In this document: in pieces, positions 1,263-36,569 of the stretch | Position numbering within the stretch: position 1 is the first letter of the stretch | Layout: every line of letters begins with the position of its first letter | Source: Escherichia phage K1H | DNA: 41,632 nucleotides | Strand: one strand, 5' to 3' | Sequence record: NC_027994.1 | Position numbers and translations under genes: made by a program | Notes under the pieces: generated by a model | Databases searched by the model: none | What the model saw: only the letters and a program-made list of their open reading frames with translations | Told to the model about the DNA's origin: nothing

Positions 1263-2756
1263 ATGGTTTCCGCAAACATTAACGCAGGGCAAGGGCAGAA
1301 CGTTAAAACCCGCCACCGCCAGTACGAAGAGTATTTCCCTAAGTGGCAGAAGGTGCGACATGCGCTTTCTGGCGACCTGACATCGTATCTACGTGACGTC
1401 AGTAAGAACGAGCCGGACCCGGTTTACGGTCGCCAGCGTCAGGCTGAATACGAAGCGGGGGCAATTTGCTACAACTTCACCAAGCGAACGCTTTCAGGCA
1501 TGGTCGGCAGCGTAATGCGCAAAGACCCCGAGATGATTATTCCGTCTCAGATGGAATACCTGACCACTAACTGTGACGGGTCGGGCGTTGGCCTGTGGCA
1601 GCACGCACAGGATACTCTGTATGAGATTGATGCTGTTGGTCGCGGTGGTTTGCTGGTTGACGCCCCCGCGGTAGAAGTAGCTACCATGGCAGAGCAAAAC
1701 GAGGGTTTACTAAACCCAACAATCGCTTTCTACACCGCAGAGAACATCATCAACTGGCGTCTCCAGCGCGTCGGGTCTGTTAATCGTGCGGTTATGGTTG
1801 TATTGCGTGAGGAATACGAGTACACCGATGGCGCGGATGAGTTCAGCCCCAACTACGGCGAGCAATACCGAGTCCTTGATATTTTCGAAGGCCAGTATCG
1901 CCAGCGTCTGTACCGCTTTAACCAGAAAGGTGCACTGACGGAAGGTGGCTATATCGAAATATTCCCGAAACTCGGTAATATTCCGGTCGGGGTGATTCCG
2001 TTCACGTTCATCGGCGCGGGAAATAACGACTCAACCCCTGACGATGCACCTTTGCTGCCGTTGGCTGAACTTAATATCGGGCACTTCCGCAACAGCGCGG
2101 ACAATGAGGAGTCCAGCTTCGTCGTAGGCCAGCCTACTCTGTTCATCGCCCCCGGTGAGAACATGAGCATGGGACAATGGAAAGAAGCCAACCCTCACGG
2201 AGTGCGTATGGGGTCACGTTCTGGCCATAACATCGGTTACGGCGGCAATGCGTTTCTGGTCCAGGCCGGTGAGAACAACCTAGCCAAGCAGAACATGTTG
2301 GATAAAGAGAACCAGGCAATCCAGATTGGTGCACAGCTTATTACCCCGACGCAGCAAATCACCGCGGAATCGGCACGCCTGCAACGCGGCGCTGATACGT
2401 CCGTTATGGCAACAATCGCACGTAACGTAAGCATGGCGTATACCGATGCGTTGCGCTGGGTCGCGGGTATGCTTGGGATTAGCGACAGCACTGAAATTGA
2501 GTTCAAACTGAACATGGAGTTCTTCCTGCAACCAATGACCGCTCAGGACCGCGCGCAGTGGATGGCGGATATTAACGCGGGCCTGTTACCGGCTACCGCT
2601 TACTATGCTGCGTTGCGTAAGGCGGGGGTAACTGACTGGACAGACGAGGACATTCAGAACGCTATCGAGGATGCGCCTCTGCCATTAGGTGCTGTTGCTC
2701 AGGTGGCTGGGGAGATTCCGCAGTCGGCGCAGCAAAAAGACCCCACCCAGCAGTAA
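1263..2756 (+). CDS. Portal protein
   Basis: 497-aa ORF immediately after terL, canonical position and size; followed by a hairpin terminator. Confidence 0.75.
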   Translation: MVSANINAGQGQNVKTRHRQYEEYFPKWQKVRHALSGDLTSYLRDVSKNEPDPVYGRQRQAEYEAGAICYNFTKRTLSGMVGSVMRKDPEMIIPSQMEYLTTNCDGSGVGLWQHAQDTLYEIDAVGRGGLLVDAPAVEVATMAEQNEGLLNPTIAFYTAENIINWRLQRVGSVNRAVMVVLREEYEYTDGADEFSPNYGEQYRVLDIFEGQYRQRLYRFNQKGALTEGGYIEIFPKLGNIPVGVIPFTFIGAGNNDSTPDDAPLLPLAELNIGHFRNSADNEESSFVVGQPTLFIAPGENMSMGQWKEANPHGVRMGSRSGHNIGYGGNAFLVQAGENNLAKQNMLDKENQAIQIGAQLITPTQQITAESARLQRGADTSVMATIARNVSMAYTDALRWVAGMLGISDSTEIEFKLNMEFFLQPMTAQDRAQWMADINAGLLPATAYYAALRKAGVTDWTDEDIQNAIEDAPLPLGAVAQVAGEIPQSAQQKDPTQQ

Positions 2757-2792: not shown

Positions 2793-3869
2793 ATGCTATT
2801 AACTTTAGCGCCACAGGGTTTATCTATGAGCTTACTTACATCACTAATCAGCCACCAAATATGGCTGCAACGCACCGCATCCGGTGAGGTGAAAGACCTC
2901 GCGCCGTTCATTAAGGAGATGCGGGACGAAATCAAACGGCAGGTGCTGCTATTCGGCGACGACGGTCGCAGCACTGCGCGACTGAATAAACTGTTACGTG
3001 ACCTTGAAGAAGTACTGACAGGACTTACTGGTGACTGGCAAACAAAGCTGGCAGAAGACCTCAAGGAACTGGCGGTGTATGAAGCTGAGTGGAACGTAAA
3101 GACCCTGACCGCCAACGTAGATGCGGAATTTGTTACGCCCACCGCCGAACAGGTGTGGGCCGCTGCTGAGTTTCAGCCATTATCATTGAGTGGCAAGCCA
3201 GTTGATTTCACTAAACTGATGTCAGGTTGGGGTGAAACGGAAGTAGCACGTCTTGTAACCAGCGTTAAGATGGGCTTTGTACAAGGTCAAACAACACGGC
3301 AGATTGTTAAGAATGTAGTAGGCGCCGGTGGGCTGGCTGACATCTCTGAGCGTAACGCCGCTACCGTCATCCGCACCGCGCTGTCTCACGTGTCCAACGA
3401 AGCCCGTAACGAGACGTACCGCCAGAACGACGACATCATCGAGAAGTACGAGTGGGTGTCAACGCTTGACAGCCGCACCAGTACGATTTGCAGGGTCAGA
3501 GACGGGATGACGTGGGAAATTGGTAAGGGGCCGATACCCCCAGCCCATCCGAACTGCCGGTCGTGCACGGCTCCGGTAATCAGTTCCGAGTTCGACTTCC
3601 TCGATAAAGGCGCAAAACGCGCGGCTAAAGGCGCGGAAGGTGGCACTCAGGTAAGCGCAGACACCACTTACTACGAGTTCCTTAAACAACAACCGGCGTG
3701 GTTTCAGGACCAGGCGCTCGGCCCGGTGCGAGGTAAGATTTTCCGTAACAGCGGTATATCGCCGGAAGAGTTTCGCGTAATATCTGTAGATGGTTTCGGG
3801 AATCCGCTCACGCTTAAGCAGATGGCGGAACTCGATAAACGTGTTGCTGATTATCTGAAAGGGTATTAA
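2793..3869 (+). CDS. Head morphogenesis protein (putative, Mu F / SPP1 gp7-like by position)
   Basis: 358-aa ORF between portal and capsid assembly genes; start uncertain (2793 or internal ATG near 2826). Confidence 0.55.
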   Translation: MLLTLAPQGLSMSLLTSLISHQIWLQRTASGEVKDLAPFIKEMRDEIKRQVLLFGDDGRSTARLNKLLRDLEEVLTGLTGDWQTKLAEDLKELAVYEAEWNVKTLTANVDAEFVTPTAEQVWAAAEFQPLSLSGKPVDFTKLMSGWGETEVARLVTSVKMGFVQGQTTRQIVKNVVGAGGLADISERNAATVIRTALSHVSNEARNETYRQNDDIIEKYEWVSTLDSRTSTICRVRDGMTWEIGKGPIPPAHPNCRSCTAPVISSEFDFLDKGAKRAAKGAEGGTQVSADTTYYEFLKQQPAWFQDQALGPVRGKIFRNSGISPEEFRVISVDGFGNPLTLKQMAELDKRVADYLKGY

Positions 3870-4330
3870 TGATGGGCTTTTTCAAAGTAACTGATGTACC
3901 GTCACGTCGCGTAGTCCAGTACGCCCGCGTGTCTGGCTCTGGTGAGAACGTGGTGTTTATTGATGATGAAAGTGTACTCGGTACACCCGAAGACGATATG
4001 CCGTTTGCAGATAAAACCGGTATTGCGTTACCCGCGGCGGGCATGCTTTATGAAATTCCGTATCTGGCGGATGCAGGTGACGTGTATTTCTCGGTGCAAC
4101 CGAAAGACACCGAGCTGGTCGACGGTAGCGCCACCATCACCGTCGAAGTTAAGGCGGGTAAAGCGCCGTGTGTACTGACCTGGTACAAAGACGGTAAGGA
4201 AGTGGTAAACGCCCCGGAAGAGGCTTTGTCTCTAACGGTTAATGCAGTTGGCGAATACTTTGTTAAAGTTACTGATGCCGATGGTGTAGAGGCCGTAAGC
4301 AAAGCGGCGAAGGTTACTAAGCCAGAATGA
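3869..4330 (+). CDS. Hypothetical structural protein
   Basis: 153-aa ORF with ATGA-type overlap to upstream gene; followed by bidirectional terminator. Confidence 0.5.
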   Translation: MMGFFKVTDVPSRRVVQYARVSGSGENVVFIDDESVLGTPEDDMPFADKTGIALPAAGMLYEIPYLADAGDVYFSVQPKDTELVDGSATITVEVKAGKAPCVLTWYKDGKEVVNAPEEALSLTVNAVGEYFVKVTDADGVEAVSKAAKVTKPE

Positions 4331-4331
4331 T

Positions 4332-4359
4332 AAAAGGCCCCTTTCGGGGCCTTATTTTT
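4332..4359. terminator. Bidirectional intrinsic terminator
   Basis: GGCCCC-TTTC-GGGGCC with T-run on + strand and A-run (T-run on - strand) on the other side. Confidence 0.6.
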
Positions 4360-4361
4360 CA

Positions 4362-4463
4362 TCAAAGTTCACCATTCCCGCTATCTGCGTCCTCGACCCC
4401 GCTAACAGCCCACACAAACAATCCTAAATTAACCAGTAACACAAATGAAATTGCTACCATCAT
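4362..4463 (-). CDS. Small hydrophobic peptide (33 aa, MMVAISFVLLVNLGLFVWAVSGVEDADSGNGEL)
   Basis: Internal ATG of track ORF 4362..4553; GGAGG Shine-Dalgarno 4-5 nt upstream; own promoter (TTGCAG-17-TACTAT) and terminator; single predicted TM helix. Confidence 0.4.
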   Translation of the reverse strand: MMVAISFVLLVNLGLFVWAVSGVEDADSGNGEL

Positions 4464-4489
4464 AACCACCTCCACTATACGTTTACTTA

Positions 4490-4518
4490 ATAGTACCCTA
4501 TTATGTTGGTGTCTGCAA
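4490..4518 (-). promoter_or_regulatory. Sigma70-like promoter, class 1 (TTGCAG-N17-TACTAT) with embedded dyad TAATAG-N4-CTATTA
   Basis: -35 at about 4513-4518 and -10 at about 4490-4495 (minus strand); spacer nearly identical to three other class-1 promoters. Confidence 0.5.
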
Positions 4519-4613: not shown

Positions 4614-4792
4614 CCACCTGAGCTTGTGAAGTATGAACAAGCGACCGCGGCGCGGGCAGGTAACGGAGCGGGACGTAAGTCCTGAGTGTAGTTACGCTGA
4701 CGCGTTCGGAAGGGCCATACTCTATTGCTTGTGTAAAAAGTAACTGGTTTACTGAGATTACGCCGTTTCTATGTTTAAATGATAAGGACTAG

Positions 4793-4820
4793 CGCCCCGC
4801 TTTAAGGCGGGGCTTTACTT
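4793..4820 (+). terminator. Intrinsic terminator
   Basis: GC-rich stem CCCCGC/GCGGGG followed by CTTTACTT; the same hairpin sequence recurs inverted at about 34970. Confidence 0.5.
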
Positions 4821-8831: not shown

Positions 8832-9244
8832 TGGGCTACTTTGAGGACTTAACAAAAGCGTTCGATGTTCCGCTGGTAGCCTTCGGAACCGCCAACGGCA
8901 TCAAGGTCGCGCTTGAAAACATCGACGCGCCGACGTCAACCGATACGCCATATCTGGCAAGTTACATGTTACTTGCGGATACGGAACAGGCGGATTTGTT
9001 CTTCACGGAACAACGCGCCGGTGTTTATCAGGTAGACATTAACTACGCATCGGTGAAAGGTAGCGCGCCAATCAATAAAATGGCAGACTTACTTAACACG
9101 GCGTTTAAAGCAGGTAAGTCATTTTCACGTAACGACATCTGCGCCGAGGTTCAATCGGTTAGCCTGGGGCCGCTGATTGTAGAAAACGGATGGGCCAAAC
9201 GACCATTGTCAATTAACTTTATTGCATTCACCAAGAGGCTGTGA
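8828..9244 (+). CDS. Tail terminator-like protein (putative)
   Basis: 138 aa, position immediately upstream of major tail protein. Confidence 0.45.
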   Translation: MMGYFEDLTKAFDVPLVAFGTANGIKVALENIDAPTSTDTPYLASYMLLADTEQADLFFTEQRAGVYQVDINYASVKGSAPINKMADLLNTAFKAGKSFSRNDICAEVQSVSLGPLIVENGWAKRPLSINFIAFTKRL

Positions 9245-9246
9245 AT

Positions 9247-10413
9247 ATGGCTACAACTCCTTTTAAGGGCGCGAATACCGCGCAATTCTATGTGGCGGAA
9301 GTCACCCCGGGCGTAACACCGACTAACCCGGTCTGGTCACCGTTGCGTAACACTGGCGGTGTTCCTGCTATCACCCGCGACACGCTGACCTCCAACGAAC
9401 TGGACGGCAGCCGTGAAACTACATCCATCCGCACCGGTAACAAACAGGTTAGCGGTGAATACGCGATCGAGCTTAGCTCGAAAAGCCAGGATGACTGGCT
9501 GGCTGGTGCTTTAGGCTCTACGTGGCAATCCGGTGTTTCCCTGTCCAGTCTGTCGATTACCGTCGCACCCGCGGGCAAGACGTTCACACGCGCTACCGGC
9601 AGTTTTATCACTGACGGAGTTGGGGTAGGCGACCTGATTGCATTTACCGATTTAACAGGCGATAACGCAAAACCATTTATTGTTACTGCAGTAACGGCTA
9701 CGGTTGTTACCGGTGCGGGCATCCAACACACCCTGACCACCGAGACAAAAACTAGTAAGGCTAAAACCGGCGACACGCTGGAAACCGGTAACACGTGTAA
9801 GACGTTCTCTATCCTTACCTGGTACAAAGGCCAGTGCGGCGGTACTGACGCGTACACGTTAACCAAAGGCGTGGAAGTTTCTGGTTTTACCATCGAACAG
9901 GCTGTTAACGCGATGGTAACTGGCAGCTTCCCATTCATCGGTCGCAGTCAGGAGATTCTCACTACGCCGCCGACCGGTTCCAACTTCTCATCTGTTACTT
10001 TTGGTGATGAGCCGTTCTCTTCGGTTGACGTTTCCGTGTTCGATGGCTCTACGCCGTTGCGTTGTGATAGCCTTACTATCACCAACGACAACAGCGCGTC
10101 CGCACAGTTCGAACTCGGCAACACTAACGTAGCGTTTGTGGAGCGTAGCCGAGCAGCTAACACCTTCTCCATCTCCGGTAAGCTGTACGACATGGCGATG
10201 ATTCAGAAGTTTATCAACGAGCAGCAGGTGGAGATTAACTCTATTCTGGCTGGGGTAAACGGGGCTATGTCTTTCAGTTTGAAACGTGCAGAACTTACGG
10301 CGGTTACACCTGAGATTGGAGGACCTGAGTCAATCACTCAGTCTATTGAAGGCCAGGCTACTGGCAACCAGTACCAGTCGTCTATTGTTATTCAGCGTAT
10401 CACATACGCATAA
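9247..10413 (+). CDS. Major tail protein
   Basis: 389 aa from ATG 9247 (AGAGG SD); Thr/Ser/Gly-rich; followed by strong terminator. Confidence 0.65.
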   Translation: MATTPFKGANTAQFYVAEVTPGVTPTNPVWSPLRNTGGVPAITRDTLTSNELDGSRETTSIRTGNKQVSGEYAIELSSKSQDDWLAGALGSTWQSGVSLSSLSITVAPAGKTFTRATGSFITDGVGVGDLIAFTDLTGDNAKPFIVTAVTATVVTGAGIQHTLTTETKTSKAKTGDTLETGNTCKTFSILTWYKGQCGGTDAYTLTKGVEVSGFTIEQAVNAMVTGSFPFIGRSQEILTTPPTGSNFSSVTFGDEPFSSVDVSVFDGSTPLRCDSLTITNDNSASAQFELGNTNVAFVERSRAANTFSISGKLYDMAMIQKFINEQQVEINSILAGVNGAMSFSLKRAELTAVTPEIGGPESITQSIEGQATGNQYQSSIVIQRITYA

Positions 10414-10417
10414 AACT

Positions 10418-10441
10418 AAGGCCCCGTTTGGGGCCTTTTTC
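10418..10441. terminator. Bidirectional intrinsic terminator
   Basis: ACTAAGGCCCC-GTTT-GGGGCCTTTTT between convergent genes; same hairpin with loop inverted at 23140-23163. Confidence 0.65.
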
Positions 10442-10996
10442 TTACAAACCTAATCTTAAAGCAATGCCTATAGCGTTCGATTTAACGTAACCCGGTATGA
10501 TGTAGGTGTCATAATCTTTTACACCATCAATATCGTACAGGTAACCGCGGCTGTCCCCTTCAAACGTATGGCCGTCTCTGTGCAAGCGGACGATTCTCAC
10601 ATCATGCCCCGCGGCAACGATAGGGGCTACTTCGCTGGCGAACCCGCCATCAGACACCACAAAAACTTCGTCGCCGTCGGGCAAGTTTCCGGCAAGATAC
10701 TTACCGAAATAATCATCACCGAATACCGGTTTAATGAATTGCTCGGAAATGGCAATCATGAACTGACGCCGAGACAACCCGTTAAGGAAACCCTCTGGCT
10801 TTTCTTTCCGCGCCCGGTCGTCGTAGCCGTCGAGAAACTCGCGGTAAGCATCCCGGCCTAACGCAGCCATAGCAATATTGAACATCGGATTCTTGAAACT
10901 GGCGACACCCTTCGCAAAGCCCATTTCTACCAGCGCCCTAGCAAGTGTGTCTTTCCCGCAGCCCGCAGGACCATTAAGAATAATTACCTTAGCCAT
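10442..10996 (-). CDS. P-loop nucleotide/nucleoside-monophosphate kinase-like protein
   Basis: 184 aa; Walker A GPAGCGKDT near N-terminus (GKDT variant as in phage dNMP kinases). Confidence 0.55.
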   Translation of the reverse strand: MAKVIILNGPAGCGKDTLARALVEMGFAKGVASFKNPMFNIAMAALGRDAYREFLDGYDDRARKEKPEGFLNGLSRRQFMIAISEQFIKPVFGDDYFGKYLAGNLPDGDEVFVVSDGGFASEVAPIVAAGHDVRIVRLHRDGHTFEGDSRGYLYDIDGVKDYDTYIIPGYVKSNAIGIALRLGL

Positions 10997-11481
10997 TATT
11001 TATCACTCCCATGTGGTTTTAAGTGTGTAGAGTTCCCGTTACAGTCGTATTCAGTAACTGCGTGAGTGGTTATGCCGAGTTCGCGGAAATGCTTTATTAC
11101 CGCTGGAGAGTCGTCGAATGCACACAAGATTCTCTCCGGCCCAATAGCACGCAACACCTCTTCTTTAATTACGATGTCTTTTCTGTTGTCGTGTTTGCTG
11201 CGCATGATTAACTGATAAAATTCGACGCGGTGGCGCTGCAACCACATTCTGGTTTCTTTTTCCGCGTCATCACTACGGCCTGTTAAGATAATAACGGCAT
11301 AGCGACGATTAAGGGCGTTACACAGTTCGATGTTATCTTTAATGGGTGCATCGTCTTTGCACGCCATGTTAAATGGTTTCCACGCCCAGGTTTCGCCGTA
11401 GTTATCTTTCGGCAGCAGGTGTAAACGATGGGTACCATCTGCCAATGTCCCGTCTAAATCGAAAATCACAATATCTTTCAC
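10996..11481 (-). CDS. HAD-superfamily phosphatase (nucleotidase or Pnk-phosphatase-like)
   Basis: 161 aa; N-terminal DxDGT motif (FDLDGTL). Confidence 0.6.
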   Translation of the reverse strand: MKDIVIFDLDGTLADGTHRLHLLPKDNYGETWAWKPFNMACKDDAPIKDNIELCNALNRRYAVIILTGRSDDAEKETRMWLQRHRVEFYQLIMRSKHDNRKDIVIKEEVLRAIGPERILCAFDDSPAVIKHFRELGITTHAVTEYDCNGNSTHLKPHGSDK

Positions 11482-12608: not shown

Positions 12609-12673
12609 GCTTACTTCCTCGTGTTTAGGATTTGTCCTATTTAACCACAGTGCATTCCTTTAAATAAAGGCGA

Positions 12674-13000
12674 CTATTTACTTTCCGCACCTATTGCCCA
12701 TCCGGTCATTACCATTTGCAGACGCGTGGCTGTCAGTAGGCTGTAGAATGCATCTCCGTTTTTCTCTACAGAACGTATTACCGTGTAGGTTACGGCTTGC
12801 GGGGGTAGGCCCGATTTACCAACCTCTACGGCGGCCTCACACTCGCGAACTGTAGAGTCCTTAAATGCCTTTACAATAGTAGGGTCGGCTTTCTCAAGCA
12901 CACCAGAAGTCATAAGAACAGATTCACTAAATACCTGTTCGCACGGGGCCCCAAAAGTAGCAAAAGACATAAGCCCCAGAGCTAATACTAATTTACGCAT
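12674..13000 (-). CDS. Small secreted/periplasmic protein (signal peptide)
   Basis: 108 aa; N-terminal MRKLVLALGLMSFATFGAP signal sequence; GAGGGA SD; class-1 promoter directly upstream. Confidence 0.5.
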   Translation of the reverse strand: MRKLVLALGLMSFATFGAPCEQVFSESVLMTSGVLEKADPTIVKAFKDSTVRECEAAVEVGKSGLPPQAVTYTVIRSVEKNGDAFYSLLTATRLQMVMTGWAIGAESK

Positions 13001-13028
13001 AATTGTTCCCTCAGTAAGTTACAGGTGA

Positions 13029-13057
13029 ATAGTACCCTATTATATTGGGGTGTGCAA
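13029..13057 (-). promoter_or_regulatory. Sigma70-like promoter, class 1 (TTGCAC-N17-TACTAT) with dyad GAATAG-TACC-CTATTA
   Basis: -35 at 13052-13057, -10 at 13029-13034 on minus strand; 34-bp segment nearly identical to 35234-35268. Confidence 0.55.
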
Positions 13058-13164
13058 GTAGTGTGCTAGAATAAGTTTGCGCCTAGTGTCGCACACGAAA
13101 AGCGGGTGGTTCCCGTCTGGCGCATTAACCTTAACCCGTAACCTCTTAACCAAAGGATTAAAGA

Positions 13165-13581
13165 ATGAAACTTTCTGATTTTTATTTTGCTGACCGCCAC
13201 GCTGCTGGTACTAAAATGCCTATCCTTCTGCCGAGCGGTAAAGACTCCGGCGAATGGTTGCAGGTCATAGGCCCTGATTGTGATGCAGGTGTTCGTGCAG
13301 GCCGCGCCTACACAACGGCAATTAGACGCCTTACGGAAGAACTCGCGCCATTAGATAAAGAGTGTGAGGCGCTGAATAACTGGGCGCGCTATAACGACGA
13401 GAAGGGCTGGCGGGTGATGGACCTGAACAAGCAGCTTGCCGTGGAAATCGTCACCGGTTGGTCATTCGATGAGCCGTTCAGCAAAGAGGCGCTGGCTAAC
13501 CTGTTCGACCAGTACAGCGGACTGGCAGAAGCTGTAGTTAAGCACCACACCGATAGCCGCGAGAAACTCTCGGAAAAGTAA
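13165..13581 (+). CDS. Tail assembly chaperone (lambda gpG-like by position)
   Basis: 138-aa acidic protein upstream of tape measure gene. Confidence 0.5.
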   Translation: MKLSDFYFADRHAAGTKMPILLPSGKDSGEWLQVIGPDCDAGVRAGRAYTTAIRRLTEELAPLDKECEALNNWARYNDEKGWRVMDLNKQLAVEIVTGWSFDEPFSKEALANLFDQYSGLAEAVVKHHTDSREKLSEK

Positions 13582-13670
13582 AAGCGCTGTATGAATTTGC
13601 GCAATGGTGTTTTGTTGACCGCCATAAGCGTAAGCAATTTGACGACATCGCGGCGGGCCACCAGGCGGCT

Positions 13671-13943
13671 TTGATTGCAATGGGCGTGATTAAAGAACCG
13701 CAGATGAAAGAAGCGACGGGGCCAGAATGCCCCGTTTCTCTTATCGATGTGTTCGAGAAATACCGTGCCATTAAATTCCTACAGCGCGAAACAGATGATA
13801 CTATCGTTATAATCCCGCGCGACGCGCTCAAATGGCAAGATTTGGTAGCGTTTCGTGATGTCGCCGGTTACGGCATAAGTTTGTTCGAAGCCGAGGTTAT
13901 CATGGGCTTAGACGGAATATTTGAGGGCAGAGAAGATGGCTGA
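13671..13943 (+). CDS. Hypothetical protein (possible second tail chaperone)
   Basis: 90-aa ORF (TTG start in track, ATG at 13680) between chaperone and tape measure; no SD seen. Confidence 0.3.
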   Translation: MIAMGVIKEPQMKEATGPECPVSLIDVFEKYRAIKFLQRETDDTIVIIPRDALKWQDLVAFRDVAGYGISLFEAEVIMGLDGIFEGREDG

Positions 13944-16248
13944 TACGGCTTCCCTAATCGCCAGAGTAAAAACTGAAGGGGCTGACGTCGCTGCCAAACA
14001 GCTTGACGCTATGGCGGCATCCGCAGACCGAGCGGACACATCTGTAAACAAACTAACGCCGGATGTTAGTAAAGCTAACACAGCTACTTCTAAAGCCGCG
14101 TCCGATGGTTTTGCCAAGTTCCGTAACGCCGCCGGGCAGGTAGGCTTCCAGGTGCAGGACATGGTTGTCCAGTTGCAATCTGGTACGTCCGCATTCGTAG
14201 CAATCGGGCAACAAGGTTCGCAGCTTGCGGGTGCCTTCGGCCCAGGTGGTGCGGTGCTTGGGGCTGTAATTGCTCTTGCGTCCGCAATCGGCGGGGTCCT
14301 GTACAAGTCGCTAACAGAGGCGGAGGGGAGTTCAAAAGACCTCGAAGCCGCACAGAAACAGTTAAAAGATACTTTCCAGCAAACGGCATCCGGTTCTCTT
14401 GAACTGACAGACGGCCTTATCCAGCTTACCCAAATCAGCAGAGAAGCGGCGGAGACTCAGCTTGCTTTGGCTAAGGCTAACGCTGACCTTATCGCACAGC
14501 AAACAGCTAAAGCCGTTCGTGAGGACGCAGAATCGTGGGAAACATGGAAAGCCTCCACGGCATCGGCGATCAGCCAGTACGATGCACTGGTATCTAAGGG
14601 TGCGGATGTAGGCGACACATTAGAAAAACTCGGCGGCACTTACGAAGGTAACATCGTAGGTGTCAACATGCTGGCGCAGAATATCGCAGAGCTTAGCAGT
14701 AAGTTTGGGGTTAACCGCGACCAGGCGCTGGAGATGATAGCGGCGCAGAGCGCGTTTAACAAAGAGCCGACCGCCGAGAATGCACGCCGTATCGCCGATG
14801 TGTTTACTGACTGGCTAGGTAATACAAAACAGTTGAACCCGGAACTTATCCGCCTGACTGACAACGCCAACAAGAACGCCACGGCACTGGAGAACGCGGA
14901 GAAGTCGGCAAACGCGGTGGCGGAGGCCCAAAAGAATCTCGGCCGTAACGTCAACTCAACCACGCAGAGATTCCAGGAACAGAACGAAGCTATCGTCAAA
15001 AACCAGCAAATCGCCATCTTAAGCGACCGTGAGCGTATCCGGGCGCAAGCTGAACTGGATAAGCAGGCGTTTGCTAAACGTGAAGCTGTCACCAAAGAAC
15101 AGATAGCCGCGTATAACGCCGCCCGTGACGCGGAAGCGCAGCAAGACATCGCCCGCATTGACAAGACCGAGAAAGAGAAGGCAGACCGCGAGGCTAAATC
15201 TAACGAGAAACGTCTGGCGGCGCAGGCCAAACGTGAAGAAACGGCGGCGCAACGTCAGAAGAAAGCCGCTGAAGATTTCCTGGCTACTGTCGACCGCACT
15301 ACTGGAGACGAAATTTCTCGCATCACGGCGGCAGAAGAACAGAAACTGGCGAAACTTGAAGAGTTCAACCGTGCCGGAACAATAAGCCAGCAGCAGTACG
15401 AAAACGCCAAAACGCAGATTATGCTCACAGCCGAGCAGGCCCGACAGGAAGAACTGGATAAGAAAAGAAAAGAGCAGCAGGAAAAGCAACAGAAAGGTGA
15501 CGACTTCATGGCTCAGATTATGGGCCAGAACGCTACTGAGCTTGAGCTTCTCGACATCCAGGAACAGCAGAAGCTGGCGGTAGCAGATAAGTACCGTGAG
15601 CAGGGGCTTATTAGCGAGAAGCAGTATCAGGCCGCGCTTAACGCCATCAACGAGCAATACGCCACCAAGCGCGCCGACGCAACGGCAACCGCCTTCGGTA
15701 ACATGGCCTCAAACATCGGGTCTGCGTTGGGTGAGGCTTCCGGCGCGTACAAAGCATTCGCTATTGTGCAGGCCACTATCGCCACGTACACCGCGGCTAT
15801 TGAGGCGTACAAGTCTACGGCGGCTATCCCTGTTGTTGGCCCGTTTCTGGCTCCTGTAGCCGCTGCCGCTGCCGTTGGGGCGGGTATGGCGCAGATTTCA
15901 GCTATCAGGTCAGCACGTGAACAGGGCGGTCAGTTATCCGCGGGGCAGGCTTCTACTATCGCTGAACGTGGTAAACCCGAAGTTATCATGCCCGCTGGCG
16001 CATCGCGTGTACGCACCGCGCAGCAGATGAAAGAAATTATGGGGCAAAACGGGTCTTCTTCCGGCCCATCTAATGTTACCATTGTAAATAATACATCGAG
16101 TCAGATTGGCAACGTATCCACCGAGCAGGATGATGAAGGCCGTCTGCGTATCATCATTGAAGAACAGGTTGCCGCGTCTTTGCAGAACAGCAACAGTAAG
16201 ATTAGCAAGGCCCGCAAGGCCACAAGAAATGCGCCGGGGTTTAAATAA
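13936..16248 (+). CDS. Tail tape measure protein
   Basis: About 770 aa, Ala/Gln/Lys-rich coiled coil; GAGGG SD before ATG 13936 (track start 13921 is TTG). Confidence 0.8.
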   Translation: MADTASLIARVKTEGADVAAKQLDAMAASADRADTSVNKLTPDVSKANTATSKAASDGFAKFRNAAGQVGFQVQDMVVQLQSGTSAFVAIGQQGSQLAGAFGPGGAVLGAVIALASAIGGVLYKSLTEAEGSSKDLEAAQKQLKDTFQQTASGSLELTDGLIQLTQISREAAETQLALAKANADLIAQQTAKAVREDAESWETWKASTASAISQYDALVSKGADVGDTLEKLGGTYEGNIVGVNMLAQNIAELSSKFGVNRDQALEMIAAQSAFNKEPTAENARRIADVFTDWLGNTKQLNPELIRLTDNANKNATALENAEKSANAVAEAQKNLGRNVNSTTQRFQEQNEAIVKNQQIAILSDRERIRAQAELDKQAFAKREAVTKEQIAAYNAARDAEAQQDIARIDKTEKEKADREAKSNEKRLAAQAKREETAAQRQKKAAEDFLATVDRTTGDEISRITAAEEQKLAKLEEFNRAGTISQQQYENAKTQIMLTAEQARQEELDKKRKEQQEKQQKGDDFMAQIMGQNATELELLDIQEQQKLAVADKYREQGLISEKQYQAALNAINEQYATKRADATATAFGNMASNIGSALGEASGAYKAFAIVQATIATYTAAIEAYKSTAAIPVVGPFLAPVAAAAAVGAGMAQISAIRSAREQGGQLSAGQASTIAERGKPEVIMPAGASRVRTAQQMKEIMGQNGSSSGPSNVTIVNNTSSQIGNVSTEQDDEGRLRIIIEEQVAASLQNSNSKISKARKATRNAPGFK

Positions 16249-17260: not shown

Positions 17261-17622
17261 ATATTAACGACTACACGGGCATACCTTACGACTTTCGCAA
17301 ACGCAATTGCTGGCATCACGTGCGCATTGTCCGCGCGGATGCAGGGTTAGAAACCCCTGCGTTCGACGTTACAAGCCCTACGGCAATTAACGAAGCGTTT
17401 GACGAAGGCCACCGTGACACGAAGGGGCTTACAAAAATTGATAAGCCTGAAAACTTCTGCGCGGTGCTTATGGGTTATCGCCGCGGGGGTCGTATCGTGT
17501 GGCATGCGGGAGTTTACTTCGACGGGATGGTGAGTCATTGCGAGCTTGCATCCCGCCAGGTACGGCTTGACAGGCTGGCGGACCTCAGAGACACGTACAC
17601 GGAGATTGAATTTTGGCGATAA
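17257..17622 (+). CDS. Tail assembly protein with NlpC/P60-like Cys/His motifs (gpK-like)
   Basis: 121 aa; NCWHH, HAGVY and HCE motifs consistent with papain-like Cys-His-His triad. Confidence 0.55.
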   Translation: MNINDYTGIPYDFRKRNCWHHVRIVRADAGLETPAFDVTSPTAINEAFDEGHRDTKGLTKIDKPENFCAVLMGYRRGGRIVWHAGVYFDGMVSHCELASRQVRLDRLADLRDTYTEIEFWR

Positions 17623-20168
17623 TCCTGCACTACTCGCGAAACGCTGATGGCGCTTTCGACCGTACAAAACACGTCGGGATGCCGATGGAGTTTGTTGTTA
17701 GCCGTATTCCGGACGGCGTGCCGGTGCGCGTCTACCTCGGCGAGATTGGCGATGATACTGATGTAACCGACGACTTCGATGCGCTTAAAGACGAAGACGC
17801 CGTGTACCACATTATTGAGGGAGCTGGTAGCGGGGCGCTTGGCGCCGTTAGTAAGGTGTTTGGTTTTATCCTTAAGCCAATCGCTAAGTTGTTCGGCCTG
17901 AACATGTCTGCAAACGCCAACTACACGGCGACTAATAACCAGACAACATCGCCAAATAACAGCCTTACCGACCGCTCAAACAAGCCGCGTCCTTACGAGC
18001 GCTCTTATGACATCTGCGGGACTGTACAGACAATCCCTAACGACCTTATGCAGACGTATAAGGCGTTCAACTCCACGGGTGCTTTGCTGGAGTATTCGTA
18101 TTATGACGCTGGGCGCGGGCATCTGCATATCGAGGCTGATGGCGTCACAGAGGGCGACACCCTGATAAGCGACATCACAGGTTCCTCTGTTGCCATATAC
18201 GCGCCGTATACGTCACCGAACAACACCACATCTCCGCAACTACAAATCGGCGACATCATTGACCAGAAACTCTATGTGACATACTCCAACGACGACGTTG
18301 ACGGTATTGTACTAAAAGCGCCAAACGACATTGGGGCCAACCCAAGCGCTGATGGTACCGCAAAACGTATTTCAAACACCGGCTACATCTATGACCCGTC
18401 AGGGGACTCTGCTTTTTCTGAGTTTCTTAGCGTCGGTGATGTGGCAGTGCTGAGCAACTTTGACGTTGCTGATGTCACTAACCTGAACGGCTCGTTTGAG
18501 GTTTTATACGTTGACGACTTCGAAGTAAGATTAGCGGTAAACGGTGCGTCTAACTGGGCGGCGTTGACCAGCGGGCAGACGTACACGTTAACAGAGCGTT
18601 CAGATACGTTTATGGGCCCGAGCAACACCTATGACGTATCCCTTACCGACTGGTATTACATGGTGCGCGGAGAAGTTGACCGAGTACTTGCTAACGTTGC
18701 CGGGCAGAACGGCCTCTACAAATACGACGGTGGCTATAATCGCACCAGCGTAACGGTAGAACTCCAGTACCAGATGATTGACTCTCGGCGCAACCCATTG
18801 AGCGATATTTACACAGTACAGGCTACAATTACCGGTAATAGCACGGATTACGTCGGTACGTCTATCTACGGGCAATTGCCTACTGCATCGCGTTTCCGCG
18901 CCCGTATGCGCCGTATAACGAATTTTGATAAGGACTACAACGGTACAGTAAGCGACGAGATAACCTTCATCAACCTGTACGGGCAGTCGCTGGACACAAC
19001 CCCACACTACGGCAACCGAACTACCGTGCATTGCGCACGTAAACAGACGCCGCGTGCCGCCAGTATCGACAACCCAGAACTGCGCATGATTTCGACCGAG
19101 ATGTGTTACAAATACCTCGGCAATGGGGTATTCGATACAGTAATGACGCCTAATACACAGGCGGTGCAGTCGCTAATCAGACTGGCGCGTGACCCGGCGG
19201 TTGGTAATCTGGAGCTGACAACGGCAAACATGGACAAGTTACTTGCTGTGCAGGAAGAGATTGAATCTTATTTTGGCAGCGAATTAGCCGGGCAATTCTG
19301 CTACACGTTCGACGACTACGACACGACGATGCAGGACATTGTTCAGGCCATAGCTGAAGCCGTGTTCTGTACTGCGTACCGTAAAGGCGCGGACATTATG
19401 CTGCGTTTCGACCGTCCGGTTGCAGGGCCTGAAATGGTGTTCACCCACCGTAGTAAGACGACCGGTACGGAGAAATGGACACGCACGTTCAACGATTCTA
19501 CGACCTACGATAGCCTGTCGTTCTCATACATCGACCCGGATACTAACGTACAGGAAACGATTTACATCCCGGAAGAACTGGGTGCAAATACGGAGGAATA
19601 CGAATCAAAGGGCGTGCGTAACTACCAACAGGCATATTGGCTGGCGTGGCGTCGCTATCAGCGCAATGCGTTAAGTAAAGTTGTTGTAGAGTTCGAAGCT
19701 ACGGAAGAAGGTGCGCTCGCTACGCCCGGTGGGGTAATCAGCGTAGTTAAAGGTTCACGTATCGCGCCACAGGACGGCTATGTTGTTGCCGTTAACGGGC
19801 TTACACTTACGCTATCCCAGCCTGTTACGTTTACTCCTGGCGATGACCACTCCATCATCCTCAAGAAGCGCGATGGCTCAGTGCAGAGTATCTCTGTCAT
19901 CAAAGGAAGACACGACCGCGAAGTGATTATGCTCTCCGCGCCGGAAGAAGCAATCTACACGGGGAATAGCGCACTAAAAACTGAGTTTTCATTCGGCAAC
20001 GAAGCAAGGCATAATGCTCAGAAGATAGTTGTTTCTTCAATCGACCCTGGCGACGACCGCACGGTCAAGATTACTGGCTACAACTATGACGACGGATTCT
20101 ACAAATACGACGGCGTCGCGCCATACGGCAGCGGTTTCTCCGACGGATTCAGCAATGGTTTTAATTAA
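17613..20168 (+). CDS. Tail tip / host specificity protein (gpJ-like, possibly with gpI-like N-terminus)
   Basis: 851 aa, largest tail gene after tape measure; TTG start in track, first ATG at about 17679. Confidence 0.65.
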   Translation: MAIILHYSRNADGAFDRTKHVGMPMEFVVSRIPDGVPVRVYLGEIGDDTDVTDDFDALKDEDAVYHIIEGAGSGALGAVSKVFGFILKPIAKLFGLNMSANANYTATNNQTTSPNNSLTDRSNKPRPYERSYDICGTVQTIPNDLMQTYKAFNSTGALLEYSYYDAGRGHLHIEADGVTEGDTLISDITGSSVAIYAPYTSPNNTTSPQLQIGDIIDQKLYVTYSNDDVDGIVLKAPNDIGANPSADGTAKRISNTGYIYDPSGDSAFSEFLSVGDVAVLSNFDVADVTNLNGSFEVLYVDDFEVRLAVNGASNWAALTSGQTYTLTERSDTFMGPSNTYDVSLTDWYYMVRGEVDRVLANVAGQNGLYKYDGGYNRTSVTVELQYQMIDSRRNPLSDIYTVQATITGNSTDYVGTSIYGQLPTASRFRARMRRITNFDKDYNGTVSDEITFINLYGQSLDTTPHYGNRTTVHCARKQTPRAASIDNPELRMISTEMCYKYLGNGVFDTVMTPNTQAVQSLIRLARDPAVGNLELTTANMDKLLAVQEEIESYFGSELAGQFCYTFDDYDTTMQDIVQAIAEAVFCTAYRKGADIMLRFDRPVAGPEMVFTHRSKTTGTEKWTRTFNDSTTYDSLSFSYIDPDTNVQETIYIPEELGANTEEYESKGVRNYQQAYWLAWRRYQRNALSKVVVEFEATEEGALATPGGVISVVKGSRIAPQDGYVVAVNGLTLTLSQPVTFTPGDDHSIILKKRDGSVQSISVIKGRHDREVIMLSAPEEAIYTGNSALKTEFSFGNEARHNAQKIVVSSIDPGDDRTVKITGYNYDDGFYKYDGVAPYGSGFSDGFSNGFN

Positions 20169-20180: not shown

Positions 20181-23135
20181 ATGTCAAGCGGATGCGGTGA
20201 CGTTTTAAGCCTGGCGGATTTACAAACCGCCAAGAAACATCAGATTTTCGAGGCCGAGGTTATCACTGGCAAATCCGGCGGTGTCGCCGGTGGTGCCGAT
20301 ATTGATTACGCGACAAATCAGGTTACTGGACAGACCCAGAAGACGTTACCTGCCGTGTTGCGTGATGCTGGTTTTAAACTGGCAGATTTTGATTTCACGT
20401 CAGGCGGTACACTATCCGCTAACGACCGAAACACCGCAGTTTTGTGGCCGTCGTCCTCTGGCGGTGACGGGGATTGGTACTATTGGTTGGGCGCTCTGCC
20501 AAAAACTATCCCGGCGTCATCTTCTCCGCAGTCTACAGGAGGCGTGTCCGAAGGGGCATGGCAACGCGCCGGGTCGGTCGTACTGAGGCAGCAAATATCT
20601 AATGCGAACGGCGCAATTCTGTACCCAGATTTACATGTGGCGCGATGGAAGGACGAATACGACCCGCGCGCATGGGGCGCCGTGGGCGACGGCGTAACTG
20701 ATGATACCCAATCTATTTTTAATGTATTAGCCGCTTCACCCAACAATTGGATTATAGACGGCAGGGGCTTGACTTATAAAGTTTCCCAATTACCCGACAT
20801 TAGTAAATTTAAGAATGCTGCATTCGTTTACGAGCGCGTAGCCGGGCAACCGCTTACTTATGTAGCTGATGGCTTCTTTAACAGCTCACTAACTAAGGTG
20901 ACGGATACCCCGTTCTACAACGCATGGACGCAGGATAAAACTTTCGTCTACGACAATGTTATTTACGCTCCGTTTATGGCAGGCGAACGACATGGCGTTC
21001 AAAACTTACATGTAGCTTGGGTTCGCTCTGGTGACGACGGGCAGACTTGGTCAATGCCTGAGTGGTTGACCCCAATCCATGCTGACTATAATGCTAGTGT
21101 TTCCGCGGACAGAGTTAACTACCACTGCATGAGCATGGGTACGTGCGGCAACCGATTATATGCAGTTATAGAAACCCGCTACTTATCTAATATGCGGATG
21201 AAGAAGGCAGAACTTTGGTCACGCCCAATGCCGTATTTTAGACACCCAACCGGCGGAATAGCTATTAGTTCTGGCTCCACTACTGCTACCATTGTCATAG
21301 AAAATCATGGCCTAAAAGCAGGAGATGCGGTTAACTTCTCTAATACATCGGCAACTGGCGTATCGGGTAATATGACGGTTGCGTCTATAATTAACCGAAA
21401 TACGTTCACTGTTACGCTCTCAAGCCCGGCGAGTTCCACCATAAACAATGCGGGTGTTACCTGGAACTTCGCAACGCGATTCTGGGACAGCCCGTGGGAA
21501 ATTACCGAATTGCCTGGGGTAGCATACTCCGCTAACGCTGATTTGTGTGTCACGGAGACACATAGTTTTGCGGTTATAGATGATGTTAACTACACTATCG
21601 CTGTCGGCTATCACAACGGCGATGTGCCCCCTAGGCGTCTCGGTGTCTTGTATTTTAGTAACGTGTATGACAATCCTGGCGTATTCGTTCGTCGCACTGT
21701 CGCTCAGGCATACGCTGATAACGCTTCTGAGCCGTGCGTGAAAAGTTATGACGGTGTACTCTACCTTACCACACGCGGCACATTACCTACTTCCCCTGGC
21801 TCTACACTGGCGATGAGCACCGATTCTGGGCAAAACTGGAGCTACTTGCGATTTCCGAACAATGTACATCACTCCAATCTTCCGTTCGCTAAAGTAGGTG
21901 ACTATCTCTACATCTTTGGTACAGAACGTGCCTTTGGCGAGTGGGAAGGGGGCGAGCCGGACAGCCGCTATGAAGGCTCGTATCCAAGGACCTTTATGTG
22001 CAAAGTTAATGTGTCGTCCTGGCCTCCATCTTTAGATGATGTTCAGTGGTTTAATATTACCGACCAAATATACCAGGGTCATATCGTTAACACTGCTGTC
22101 GGCGTCGGCTCGGTCTGTGTTAAAGATGGCTGGTTGTACTATATCTTTGGTGGGGAAGACTTCTTCTCTCCCTGGAGCATAGGGGATAACAGTGCGAAGT
22201 TATGGTACAAACATGATGGACATCCTGCTGACTTATATAGCTACCGGATAAAGATTGAAGACCACCCGTATGTATCCCGTGATTTCAAATACGGAGCAAC
22301 TCCTAACCGTACACTACCTGTCGCCATGGGGGTAGATGGTGTACGTCATGTAGGGGCACCTTTAACATTTGATAATGATGTAAGCGTGTACTCCCTGCAT
22401 GTAACGGGGCTGGAATACGATGGTACACAACAGTCCGCCGTGCGTGCACAGTTTGATGGTGATTACGGGCTGATTTCAAAAACAGTCCCCACTAAAACCC
22501 CATCGGGTCAAAGACTGATAGTTAGCGGTGGTGATGGTGCATCCAGTTCCGATGGTGCGTTGCTGCAACTGTACGGGGCAAACCATGCAATGCCTAACAG
22601 GGCTATTATGTATGCGTCAGGAGGCTTCTACTCATACAACAATTTCCTTCCTTACTTAGACTCGCAAGTGTCTTTAGGTTCGGCAGGTAATAGGTGGACT
22701 ACGGTGTACGCGACCACCGGTACGATAAACACGTCTGATGGTACACTTAAGACGAATAAAGAGGAAATTGAGGGACAACTCCTTACCGCATGGGAAGATA
22801 TACATGTAATATCTTTTAAGTGGCTTGAAAGCCTAGCAATCAAGGGTGACACTGCAAGGATACACTTCGGTGTGATAGCCCAAGATGTGCGAGACATCTT
22901 GGTCAACCATGGGCTTATGGAGAAAGATTCTACCGATTGTAAATATGCTTTCTTGTGCTACGACCCAATTGAAGCTGCGTATGATATTGATGAAGATGGC
23001 CAGACTGTACAAGTATCCCCTCCCGGCGGCAGATGGGGGGTTAGGGCGGACCAGATGTTCTTCATAGAGATTGCCTATCAGCGTAAGAAGATGCGCGAGT
23101 TCGAGAAGAGGCTGGCAGCACTAGAAGATAAATAA
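20181..23135 (+). CDS. Tailspike / receptor-binding depolymerase with C-terminal intramolecular chaperone domain
   Basis: 984 aa; GAVGDGVTDDT motif (pectate-lyase-like beta-helix signature), two Asp-box-like motifs (SGDDGQTW, STDSGQNW), C-terminal region resembling self-cleaving chaperone domains of tail fibers/endosialidases. Confidence 0.65.
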   Translation: MSSGCGDVLSLADLQTAKKHQIFEAEVITGKSGGVAGGADIDYATNQVTGQTQKTLPAVLRDAGFKLADFDFTSGGTLSANDRNTAVLWPSSSGGDGDWYYWLGALPKTIPASSSPQSTGGVSEGAWQRAGSVVLRQQISNANGAILYPDLHVARWKDEYDPRAWGAVGDGVTDDTQSIFNVLAASPNNWIIDGRGLTYKVSQLPDISKFKNAAFVYERVAGQPLTYVADGFFNSSLTKVTDTPFYNAWTQDKTFVYDNVIYAPFMAGERHGVQNLHVAWVRSGDDGQTWSMPEWLTPIHADYNASVSADRVNYHCMSMGTCGNRLYAVIETRYLSNMRMKKAELWSRPMPYFRHPTGGIAISSGSTTATIVIENHGLKAGDAVNFSNTSATGVSGNMTVASIINRNTFTVTLSSPASSTINNAGVTWNFATRFWDSPWEITELPGVAYSANADLCVTETHSFAVIDDVNYTIAVGYHNGDVPPRRLGVLYFSNVYDNPGVFVRRTVAQAYADNASEPCVKSYDGVLYLTTRGTLPTSPGSTLAMSTDSGQNWSYLRFPNNVHHSNLPFAKVGDYLYIFGTERAFGEWEGGEPDSRYEGSYPRTFMCKVNVSSWPPSLDDVQWFNITDQIYQGHIVNTAVGVGSVCVKDGWLYYIFGGEDFFSPWSIGDNSAKLWYKHDGHPADLYSYRIKIEDHPYVSRDFKYGATPNRTLPVAMGVDGVRHVGAPLTFDNDVSVYSLHVTGLEYDGTQQSAVRAQFDGDYGLISKTVPTKTPSGQRLIVSGGDGASSSDGALLQLYGANHAMPNRAIMYASGGFYSYNNFLPYLDSQVSLGSAGNRWTTVYATTGTINTSDGTLKTNKEEIEGQLLTAWEDIHVISFKWLESLAIKGDTARIHFGVIAQDVRDILVNHGLMEKDSTDCKYAFLCYDPIEAAYDIDEDGQTVQVSPPGGRWGVRADQMFFIEIAYQRKKMREFEKRLAALEDK

Positions 23136-23139
23136 AACT

Positions 23140-23163
23140 AAGGCCCCAAACGGGGCCTTTTCT
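23140..23163. terminator. Bidirectional intrinsic terminator
   Basis: GGCCCC-AAAC-GGGGCC plus TTTTCTC between convergent tailspike and leftward operon. Confidence 0.65.
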
Positions 23164-23367
23164 CTACCCTTCAGATAACTTCTCCAGTATGAACGCCAGT
23201 TGTGCATTAGCGGCGTCTCTTTGCTGCCGTAGTCGTAGAATCTCTTCTTCTAGTTCCTTGATACGTTTTATTTCTCGCTTTAACTGCATAGCAAGAAGTT
23301 GCTCGCGGGCATTAAGAGCAGATTTTACCAATTCGTTGCAGGCGTCAATATCAAACTCATTATTCAT
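23164..23367 (-). CDS. Hypothetical coiled-coil protein
   Basis: 67 aa, last gene of leftward operon. Confidence 0.45.
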   Translation of the reverse strand: MNNEFDIDACNELVKSALNAREQLLAMQLKREIKRIKELEEEILRLRQQRDAANAQLAFILEKLSEG

Positions 23368-26014: not shown

Positions 26015-26314
26015 CTAACTATAATAGCTAGCTATTAGGTCGTCAACCTGTTTAAACGAACCAACGACAAAAACATTCGCACCACGTTTACGCATCCGCT
26101 CATGTTCCCGTAGCTGGTGCGGGTCTGGCTTCGTGTTCTCGTCTTTCTTAACCTCGACGAACCAGACTATGCCGCCGGGGAGAATTACCAGCAGGTCTGG
26201 GGCGCCGGAACGCCCCTCGTAGGAGAGTTTGCGAACGAGGCCGCCAAGGGCCTCGAATCGGTCTTTTGCGTATTTCTGTACGCGGCCCTCTTTAGTCATG
26301 AGCGTAGATCCCAA
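26015..26314 (-). CDS. VRR-NUC domain nuclease (putative)
   Basis: PD-(D/E)XK-like ...PDLLVILPGG...VEVKK; likely true start is the ATG 5 codons in (ATGA overlap with upstream small ORF). Confidence 0.55.
   Translation of the reverse strand: MGSTLMTKEGRVQKYAKDRFEALGGLVRKLSYEGRSGAPDLLVILPGGIVWFVEVKKDENTKPDPHQLREHERMRKRGANVFVVGSFKQVDDLIASYYS
26018..26046 (-). promoter_or_regulatory. Sigma70-like promoter, class 2 (TTGACG-N17-TATAGT) with perfect 16-bp palindrome TAATAGCTAGCTATTA
   Basis: Minus-strand -35 at about 26041-26046 and -10 at about 26018-26023; overlaps 3' end of VRR-NUC gene. Confidence 0.55.
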
Positions 26315-28845: not shown

Positions 28846-28872
28846 TAGTAAAAAGGCCCAATGAAGGGCCTT
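28846..28872 (-). terminator. Intrinsic terminator/attenuator between SSB-like gene and DNA polymerase
   Basis: GGCCC-N6-GGGCC followed by TTTTT on minus strand. Confidence 0.45.
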
Positions 28873-28891
28873 AGTTAAATTGATTCAGATA

Positions 28892-29518: not shown

Positions 29519-29571
29519 CGTGATTTCTCGCTTTTCAGTTTACTCCGGGAACTGCCCGGCCAGTGATTAGA

Positions 29572-29600
29572 ACTATAATAGCTAACTATTCAGGTGTCAA
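29572..29600 (-). promoter_or_regulatory. Sigma70-like promoter, class 2 (TTGACA-N17-TATAGT) with dyad TAATAG-CTAA-CTATTC
   Basis: Minus-strand -35 at 29595-29600, -10 at 29572-29577. Confidence 0.55.
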
Positions 29601-29604
29601 CACT

Positions 29605-31686: not shown

Positions 31687-31717
31687 TTGTTTCTCTCCTC
31701 TCGTTTGGTATGTGTTA

Positions 31718-36562: not shown

Positions 36563-36569
36563 AATTTAC

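Follow-up and report, generated by a model that had tools for sequence, protein, structure and literature searches.

The window, i.e., the whole stretch of 41,632 nt analysed here (Escherichia phage K1H, NC_027994.1), belongs to the genus Kagunavirus (Guernseyvirinae; K1G-like siphophages) according to megablast searches with two of its stretches, and its best matches were the Escherichia phages MirsaeidiM_Esher4, K1ind2/3 and K1G. Gene order, starting from the large terminase gene, is as in K1G. Two intergenic spaces of this genome carry a closely similar short hairpin. At the first site (A1), the tail tube (major tail) gene (9241..10413, plus strand) converges on a kinase-like gene (10442..10996, minus strand). 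The latter is part of a set of accessory genes (10442..11481, minus strand; ATP-binding/kinase-like and polynucleotide kinase) that ends at A1 and is replaced in many relatives. At the second site (A2), the endosialidase tailspike gene (20181..23135, plus strand; stop codon 23133-23135) converges on a conserved 67-aa gene (23164..23367, minus strand), whose stop codon (CTA as read on the plus strand) is separated from the A2 stem by 4 nt. Both spaces measure 28 nt from stop to stop and are built alike: 4 nt on either side separate a 20-nt hairpin from the stop codons of the two convergent genes.

The motif of these hairpins, which we call family A, is (TAA)AACT-AAGGCCCC-N4-GGGGCCTT-TTTT. With its flanking stop codons, A1 reads TAA-AACT-AAGGCCCC-GTTT-GGGGCCTT-TTTC-TTA (10411..10444) and A2 reads TAA-AACT-AAGGCCCC-AAAC-GGGGCCTT-TTCT-CTA (23133..23166), both legible on either strand. 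In a narrower delimitation A1 is ACTAAGGCCCC-GTTT-GGGGCCTTTT at 10415-10439 (stem-loop 10418-10437) and A2 is ACTAAGGCCCC-AAAC-GGGGCCTTTT at 23137-23161 (stem-loop 23140-23159), and a wider form, ATAAAACT-AAGGCCCC-N4-GGGGCCTT-TTTT, occupies 10410-10439 (loop GTTT) and 23132-23161 (loop AAAC). Identity between the two copies reaches from ATAAAACTAAGGCCCC to GGGGCCTTTT and takes in the TAA stop codon of the upstream gene, which forms the first 3 nt of the A1 element; the A2 stem begins 4 nt past the tailspike TAA. The asymmetric flanks of A1 and A2 are in direct orientation, and their loops are exact reverse complements. A preliminary description of this DNA had claimed a hairpin reused with conserved flanks and an inverted loop between convergent transcription units, and two further GC-rich hairpins. 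All four exist, within 2–3 nt of where they had been placed, and the flanks, the inverted loop and the convergent gene pairs are as it had claimed.

Two members of family A come in addition to that description. A third copy (A3; 4332-4359, minus strand), found by a pattern search with one mismatch, is inverted (AAAAATAAGGCCCCGAAAGGGGCCTTTT on the minus strand) and sits directly 3' of a Hoc-like decoration gene (3869..4330), its stem beginning 2 nt past the stop codon. A fourth, diverged hairpin, TTTAACTAAGGCCC-TTCATT-GGGCCTTTTT (28850-28876, minus strand), came from a repeat finder. Read on the minus strand, it consists of AAGGCCC-N6-GGGCCTT and a TTTAACTAA flank, and it lies between the co-directional genes for a DUF2815 protein and DNA polymerase. 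Genomes contain 3–4 copies of family A, located at gene 3' ends with embedded stop codons. The family A pattern had 0.00 expected matches in 100 dinucleotide-preserving shuffles.

The same number of matches was expected for the two further hairpins, family B, which consist of the 28-nt sequence TAGCGCCCCGCTTTARGGCGGGGCTTTA at 4790-4817 (B1, plus strand) and 34969-34996 (B2, minus strand). B1 (TAGCGCCCCGC-TTTAAG-GCGGGGCTTTA) is intergenic, 21 nt upstream of the spanin gene start (4838), and its core GCCCCGC-TTTAAG-GCGGGGC (4794-4813) returns as the reverse complement, with one loop difference, at 34973-34992. The two copies agree at 27 of 28 nt, unpaired bases included. Conservation of B1 extends to all Kagunavirus loci. 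In Jerseyvirus-like loci the stem at this site is a different, compensated one (GCCCGGC/GCCGGGC), which supports a structural role. B2 lies in the early divergent control region, in a variable patch of 260–370 nt, and was found in only four of seven complete genomes (the window, K1G, K1ind2 and K1ind3). A T-tract downstream of B2 is missing on the plus strand and amounts only to TTTAAGT on the minus strand, and B2 is located upstream of predicted leftward promoters. Family B reads as a one-directional, terminator-like hairpin that was apparently duplicated once in its transcriptional orientation. The preliminary description had called this GCCCCGC-N6-GCGGGGC pair related to the A1/A2 hairpins. 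Both copies were found and they are inverted as it had said, but the relationship does not hold: families A and B have nothing in common beyond a GC-rich stem, and a single family was rejected.

Conservation of the hairpins was assessed in three comparison sets: six complete Kagunavirus genomes; 26 IMG/VR loci found via the tail protein 17613-20165; and 78 IMG/VR loci that match AAACTAAGGCCCC-N4-GGGGCCTTTT exactly, almost all of them on contigs of 41–45 kb. Loci found via the protein were anchored on flanking sequence by blastn (on the downstream flank for A2), and the exact hairpin was present at 24 of 26 A1 sites and 27 of 29 A2 sites. A 37-nt query matched 1,148 records in all, most commonly from Salmonella and Escherichia phages and with Guernseyvirinae as the best matches, and reached at least 80% coverage in 717 phage records. 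High-coverage matches were essentially confined to Guernseyvirinae; those in other taxa (records of Taipeivirus, Klebsiella, Vibrio and Microviridae) were weaker and mostly covered the stem only. Jerseyviruses carry the entire asymmetric element in inverted orientation with respect to the tail tube gene.

Predicted transcription termination

The hairpin core of A1 and A2 folds at −15.5 kcal/mol on either strand, and the minus strand of A1 at −19.1 kcal/mol. Overall, the stems have 8 bp with 6–7 GC pairs, minimum free energies of −15.5 to −21.3 kcal/mol and z-scores of −2.6 to −3.9. Both hairpins ranked top in a terminator scan in both directions. Directly 3' of the family A hairpin, the plus strand reads UUUU(U)CU and the minus strand UUAGUUUUA. 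The individual U-tracts are TTTTTCTT (plus) and TTAGTTTTAT (minus) at A1, TTTTCTCT (plus) and TTAGTTTTAT (minus) at A2, and TTTACTTAT at B1; that of B2 is weak (TTTAAGT). The tracts are interrupted (TTTTCTCT; TTAGTTTT). On the minus strand, the conserved left flank AAAACTAA appears as UUAGUUUU, and hence would serve as a second U-tract for the opposite strand. A1 and A2 thus combine a stable GC-rich stem-loop, a U-rich tract 3' of it and a position at gene 3' ends, and between their convergent genes hairpin and U-tract are legible on both strands. Since U-tracts flank the hairpins on both strands, A1 and A2 can be read as bidirectional intrinsic terminators. This is in line with the terminator-like nature proposed in the preliminary description, and with the record of the Jerseyvirus Shelanagig, in which the orthologous hairpin carries a terminator annotation on each strand; the record of phage skrot annotates it as a repeat_region. 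Searches of the whole window with the curated covariance models of Rfam gave no match at gathering thresholds, and a known RNA family was rejected on that basis.

We consider it likely, from sequence and predicted structure, that family A is a compact, near-palindromic, bidirectional Rho-independent terminator that is reused in the Guernseyvirinae backbone. It would stop both converging transcripts, and thereby insulate the late structural operon from the minus-strand cassettes and the replication operon. Like other bidirectional intrinsic terminators, it has a GC-rich stem-loop with an upstream A-tract and a downstream T-tract between convergent stop codons. In contrast to the usual examples, this predicted terminator is unusually compact and stereotyped, and identical in sequence across sites and genera. 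A3 and B1 lie within the plus-strand late operon, where a strong terminator needs read-through or re-initiation.

The stem of family A showed no compensatory variation across ~100 instances. This uniformity exceeds what structure alone would predict and hints at homogenisation or at a sequence-specific use, neither of which is explained by a plain terminator. The T-tract at A1 ranges from T4 to T11 among relatives (L030 at 2997-3030, L049, L070 and L099), a polymorphism of the slippage type, and locus L015 combines one mutated stem base (GGGGCT) with an expanded T-run at this site. At the A2 site of L026 (~15440-15471), the usual right flank TTTTCTCTA follows a different hairpin, AAGGGCC-GAAA-GGCCCTT; here, exceptionally, the tailspike appears to have arrived together with a terminator stem of its own.

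Loop inversion and the origin of the copies

The loops at each orthologous site are polymorphic as reverse-complement pairs. At A1 of Kagunavirus, the counts were TTTC 16 and GAAA 4, GTTT 4 and AAAC 1, and TTCC 1 and GGAA 1; at A1 of Jerseyvirus they were GAAA 7 and TTTC 5. At A2, AAAC occurred 16 times and GTTT 6 times, and GAAA 3 times and TTTC once, and at A3 both TTAC and GTAA are present. Pairs of loci with unlike loops but at least 90% identical flanks comprised seven exact inversions, six two-base differences and two inversions with one further change; single substitutions were absent among these pairs. For instance, L015 and L018 have a common tailspike 3' end, with loops GTTT and AAAC, respectively. 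Assembly ambiguity is an implausible cause of these flips, because the stem arms are only 8 nt long.

Template switching between inverted-repeat arms is an established mutation process, which inverts the spacer or loop and homogenises the arms (PMC8604942; PMC8794818). Flipped loops of family A may have arisen in this way between its perfect arms, and inversion would be tolerated since the terminator works in both directions. The inverted loop of A1 relative to A2 would then be one instance of a recurrent inversion, and the pattern fits this mechanism. It resembles template-switch inversions (PMC8794818; PMC8604942) and the 'small inversions' of chloroplast hairpins (e.g., PMC5492656) in its perfect short arms, in the presence of both spacer orientations among close relatives and in a lack of intermediates. 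It differs from rRNA, where loop or spacer inversions are reported to be very rare (PMC8794818), in that both orientations of the family A loops are common at each site. None of the papers that a literature search on phage terminators listed used the phrase loop inversion. In the window, A1 carries GTTT, the inverted counterpart of the loop most often seen at A2. This could also stem from conversion between the two sites, but one possible intermediate (GTTC) exists at A2, which makes conversion a speculation.

The flanks that the copies share play no part in the hairpin structure. Family A copies are for this reason best regarded as paralogues that arose by copying and not by convergence. Only two features of family A are mildly unusual: the repeated flipping of its loops and the invariance of its stems.

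Cassette boundaries and a possible role in recombination

Comparison with relatives shows that homology often ends exactly at the hairpins. The right flank of A2 forms one conserved class, whereas the left flank falls into 23 unrelated classes that diverge immediately 5' of TAAAACTAA; for every one of these 23 tailspike 3' ends, the junction with the backbone is the TAA of TAAAACTAAGG. Conversely, the left flank of A1, the end of the tail tube gene, forms one class, and its right flank at least four unrelated classes, starting just past the stop codon of the minus-strand gene (four by eye; an automatic count of nine was inflated by shifts in T-run length). At the A3 site elsewhere, variable minus-strand genes end in TAAAACTAA at the hairpin. 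Family A is the sole non-coding sequence that separates a conserved gene of the backbone from its replaceable neighbour, and therefore marks the edge of a variable cassette. The cassettes that it would delimit are, at A2, the receptor-binding part of the tailspike and, at A1 and A3, accessory genes or genes for homing endonucleases. Chained alignment gaps place the exchangeable receptor-binding part between ~20.36–20.43 kb, inside the tailspike gene, and the stop codon at 23133-23135.

The preliminary description had viewed the hairpins as module boundaries, and possibly as recombination hotspots that exchange the tail/host-range block; it had suggested a breakpoint analysis of related phages, in which a lack of mosaic breakpoints at the hairpins would have spoken against this view. 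Breakpoints were present, and the view was not refuted in this way. Presence/absence edges, scored as homology loss on one side with 90-nt arms, occurred at A2 in 21 of 26 loci (81%), with the tailspike side lost, and at A1 in 11 of 22 loci (50%), with the side of the minus-strand cassette lost, against a control rate of 2.3% within genes. Arms of 200 nt mis-score A2, because another break lies 105 nt to its right. The description as module boundaries is accurate for A1 and A2, which lie exactly at mosaic boundaries, but not for B1 and B2, neither of which is located at a patch edge. At the diverged hairpin (28850-28876), an identity step was found in 13 of 24 relatives.

The hairpins are not unique in this respect. 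Among 19 junctions without these hairpins, eight scored 8/22 to 19/22 and eleven scored 0–1. Hence a hotspot specific to the hairpins is not demonstrated, as eight junctions that lack them are equally mosaic. Exchange of the A1–A2 interval as one tail/host-range block was rejected. Identity patches of 0.5–3 kb begin and end throughout this interval and no coherent block is seen; the host-range cassette comprises only ~20.4–23.13 kb, and the variable side of A1 is the accessory cassette. Family A is in our reading an ordinary regulatory element, reused across sites, that marks cassette boundaries.

A second repeated element is associated with the cassettes. This promoter-like repeat of 34–39 nt (TTGCAC-17 nt-TACTAT) occurs on the minus strand at 4480-4518 and 13025-13058, at the 5' ends of both minus-strand cassettes, which end in A3 and A1, respectively; two more copies lie in the early region on the plus strand (35236-35275 and 36567-36601). 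The copy at 13025 coincides with a mosaic edge in 19 of 22 loci. On the minus strand of 4334-4518, the promoter-like element is followed by ~120 nt and the A3 terminator with no convincing ORF, and this segment looks like an 'empty' cassette or a small RNA; relatives such as phage fPoEco01 (5043..5564) have a minus-strand gene at the matching position. Free-standing HNH homing endonuclease genes are inserted at A1 in two relatives (L007, 1197-1743; L006, 12451-13213). The insert of L007 (ORF 1281..1712, minus strand) has a hairpin copy on either side, with the opposite loops GAAA and TTTC, and in L006 (fPoEco01) the HNH gene separates the tail tube stop codon from the hairpin.

The morons of lambdoid and other phages, as reportedly described by Juhala et al. 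2000 and by Hendrix et al., consist of a gene that has been inserted between backbone genes together with a promoter and terminator of its own. The cassettes seen here are similar, as opposite-strand accessory genes lie in the late operon between a promoter-like element and a terminator, with one bracket apparently empty (4518->4334). They differ from morons in that the bracketing elements have the same sequence at different sites, and the terminator serves the backbone operon as well.

Beyond termination, family A might act as a recombination substrate. It would then offer ~30 nt of portable homology, together with the promoter-like element, through which phage or host recombination inserts, deletes and swaps cassettes including the tailspike, much as the PeSLs of T4-type phages. 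We regard this as possible, yet on balance unlikely. It would account for the identical non-structural flanks at 3–4 sites, in both orientations and across genera, for the 23 tailspike ends joined at the same nucleotide, for the HNH genes of L007 and fPoEco01 beside or between hairpins, and for the two minus-strand cassettes that open with the promoter-like element and close with family A. Invariant stems, and loops that appear mobile between sites (A2-type loops at A1 and the reverse), point in the same direction. Further support comes from near-identical K1 tailspike genes, where divergence jumps from ~1% to 9–12% within −100..+29 around A2, and from the window and K1ind1, which diverge by ~7% in the 100 nt left of A1, ~1% to its right, and 1.5% in the next 200 nt further left. 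These jumps fit crossovers at or near the hairpins, but they are not decisive given pervasive mosaicism, with identity steps at 16.6% of control positions. Moreover, the hairpin-free junctions show equally frequent presence/absence edges, high-identity patches often cross A1 and A2 (several relatives are 99–100% identical straight across one or the other), and the sample pairs are not independent. Kilobases of flanking homology are usable within the subfamily, and hence the hairpin is not needed for exchange there. Across taxa, no family A hairpin was found downstream of the endosialidase genes of Phapecoctavirus nepoznato, which has a different hairpin, and of K1F, which has none; an arrival of the hairpin from other taxa together with the endosialidase domain was therefore rejected, and it did not travel with the receptor-binding domain.

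The hotspot idea itself is not new (PMC10408124, PMC2839356). PeSLs of T4-type phages are composites of a sigma-70 promoter and a stem-loop, for which recombination and mini-circles have been shown experimentally (Arbiol et al. 2010, PMC2839356; Comeau et al. 2014, PMC4122927). As in those phages, repeated promoter or terminator motifs lie here beside non-essential variable genes at the boundaries of indels and replacements, and a conserved regulatory motif is repeated (3–4 family A copies) beside variable genes at A1, A2 and A3. However, the promoter-like and terminator parts are separate here, the copies number only 3–4, and recombination between them is hypothetical. No promoter adjoins the hairpins in the 28-nt intergenic spaces of A1 and A2, and thus the composite unit of a PeSL is missing there.

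A study of receptor-binding proteins (RBPs) is closer to the present case (Virol J 2023, PMC10408124). It reported, for all six Kagunavirus RBPs, a conserved motif where the anchor domain of the tailspike ends and, in other lytic genera, a 20-nt predicted-terminator motif 0–19 nt past the RBP stop codons, and suggested that both motifs aid the swapping of receptor-binding domains. Our results agree with these RBP-flanking motifs, in that the left edge of the swap (20.36-20.43 kb) lies inside the gene, consistent with the anchor-domain motif, and its right edge is the terminator. The distance of 4 nt between the tailspike TAA and the A2 stem falls within the 0–19 nt of this 'motif three'. They differ from that study in that it does not list the downstream terminator motif for Kagunavirus, and in that the A2 hairpin is absent past the nepoznato and K1F endosialidases. 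A broader version of the recombination hypothesis holds that Guernseyvirinae have a PeSL-like shuffling system, in which template switching and conversion between sites keep a 30-nt terminator identical and, together with the promoter-like element, drive the exchange of morons, homing endonucleases and receptor-binding domains. Flipping loops and invariant stems would be the footprint of template switching and conversion. This, too, we put forward only tentatively, as an idea that is probably not correct as a whole.

It is very unlikely that family A moves from one intergenic site to another by itself, be it as a small palindromic mobile element (REP/MITE-like) or as a target or vehicle of free-standing homing endonucleases. 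The presence of several copies in each genome, oriented either way with respect to neighbouring genes, HNH genes adjoining the hairpin in L006 and L007, and the duplicated hairpin of L007 could be understood in this way. Yet the copies have no terminal inverted repeats beyond the stem, no target-site or other flanking duplications were seen, and there is no transposase. Instead of many dispersed copies, each genome has only 3–4, always at gene 3' ends with embedded stop codons and at sites that are orthologous and stable across the subfamily; HNH genes, in turn, are also inserted away from hairpins. A chance or convergent likeness of generic GC-rich terminators, with no common descent, is extremely improbable: tetraloop stems of the GGCCCC/GGGGCC type are common in enterobacterial phages, and weaker, stem-only matches occur in other taxa, but against this reading stand the identity of the unpaired flanks (ATAAAACT.., ..TTTT) across sites and genera, the agreement of B1 and B2 in their unpaired bases, and the lack of expected matches in shuffles.

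Read as a terminator, family A provides a precise and conserved punctuation that helps to delimit transcription units in Kagunavirus and Jerseyvirus genomes. For the engineering of therapeutic phages specific for K1 or O-antigens, the right edge of the tailspike cassette can be given to the nucleotide, as the stop codon inside TAAAACTAAGG, and keeping the hairpin intact would be a natural design rule for swaps of receptor-binding domains. In alignments and phylogenies, an apparent 4-nt 'multi-substitution' at these loops should be treated as a single event. If the hairpins were hotspots after all, the PeSL principle would extend from T4-type myoviruses to a siphophage subfamily.

Several other segments of the window deserve mention. 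The region 12640-15400 encodes a superinfection-immunity-like protein, the tail assembly chaperone and the N-terminal half of the tape measure protein. It aligns with only three of 18 relatives (L011, L022 and L026), and by this comparison appears to be a rare allele, in a tail module that is normally conserved. Exact tandem copies of a 24-nt unit (from ATCCGTATAACTGACCGCAGGCTTAT) lie at 35712-35785 in the early region; these are candidate iterons or regulator binding sites. A putative minus-strand promoter (TTGACA-17-TATAGT, with conserved surroundings) occurs three times in the replication operon, at 26017-26047, 29571-29601 and 31717-31741, and chained alignment gaps cluster at 29600-29624, adjoining its second copy.
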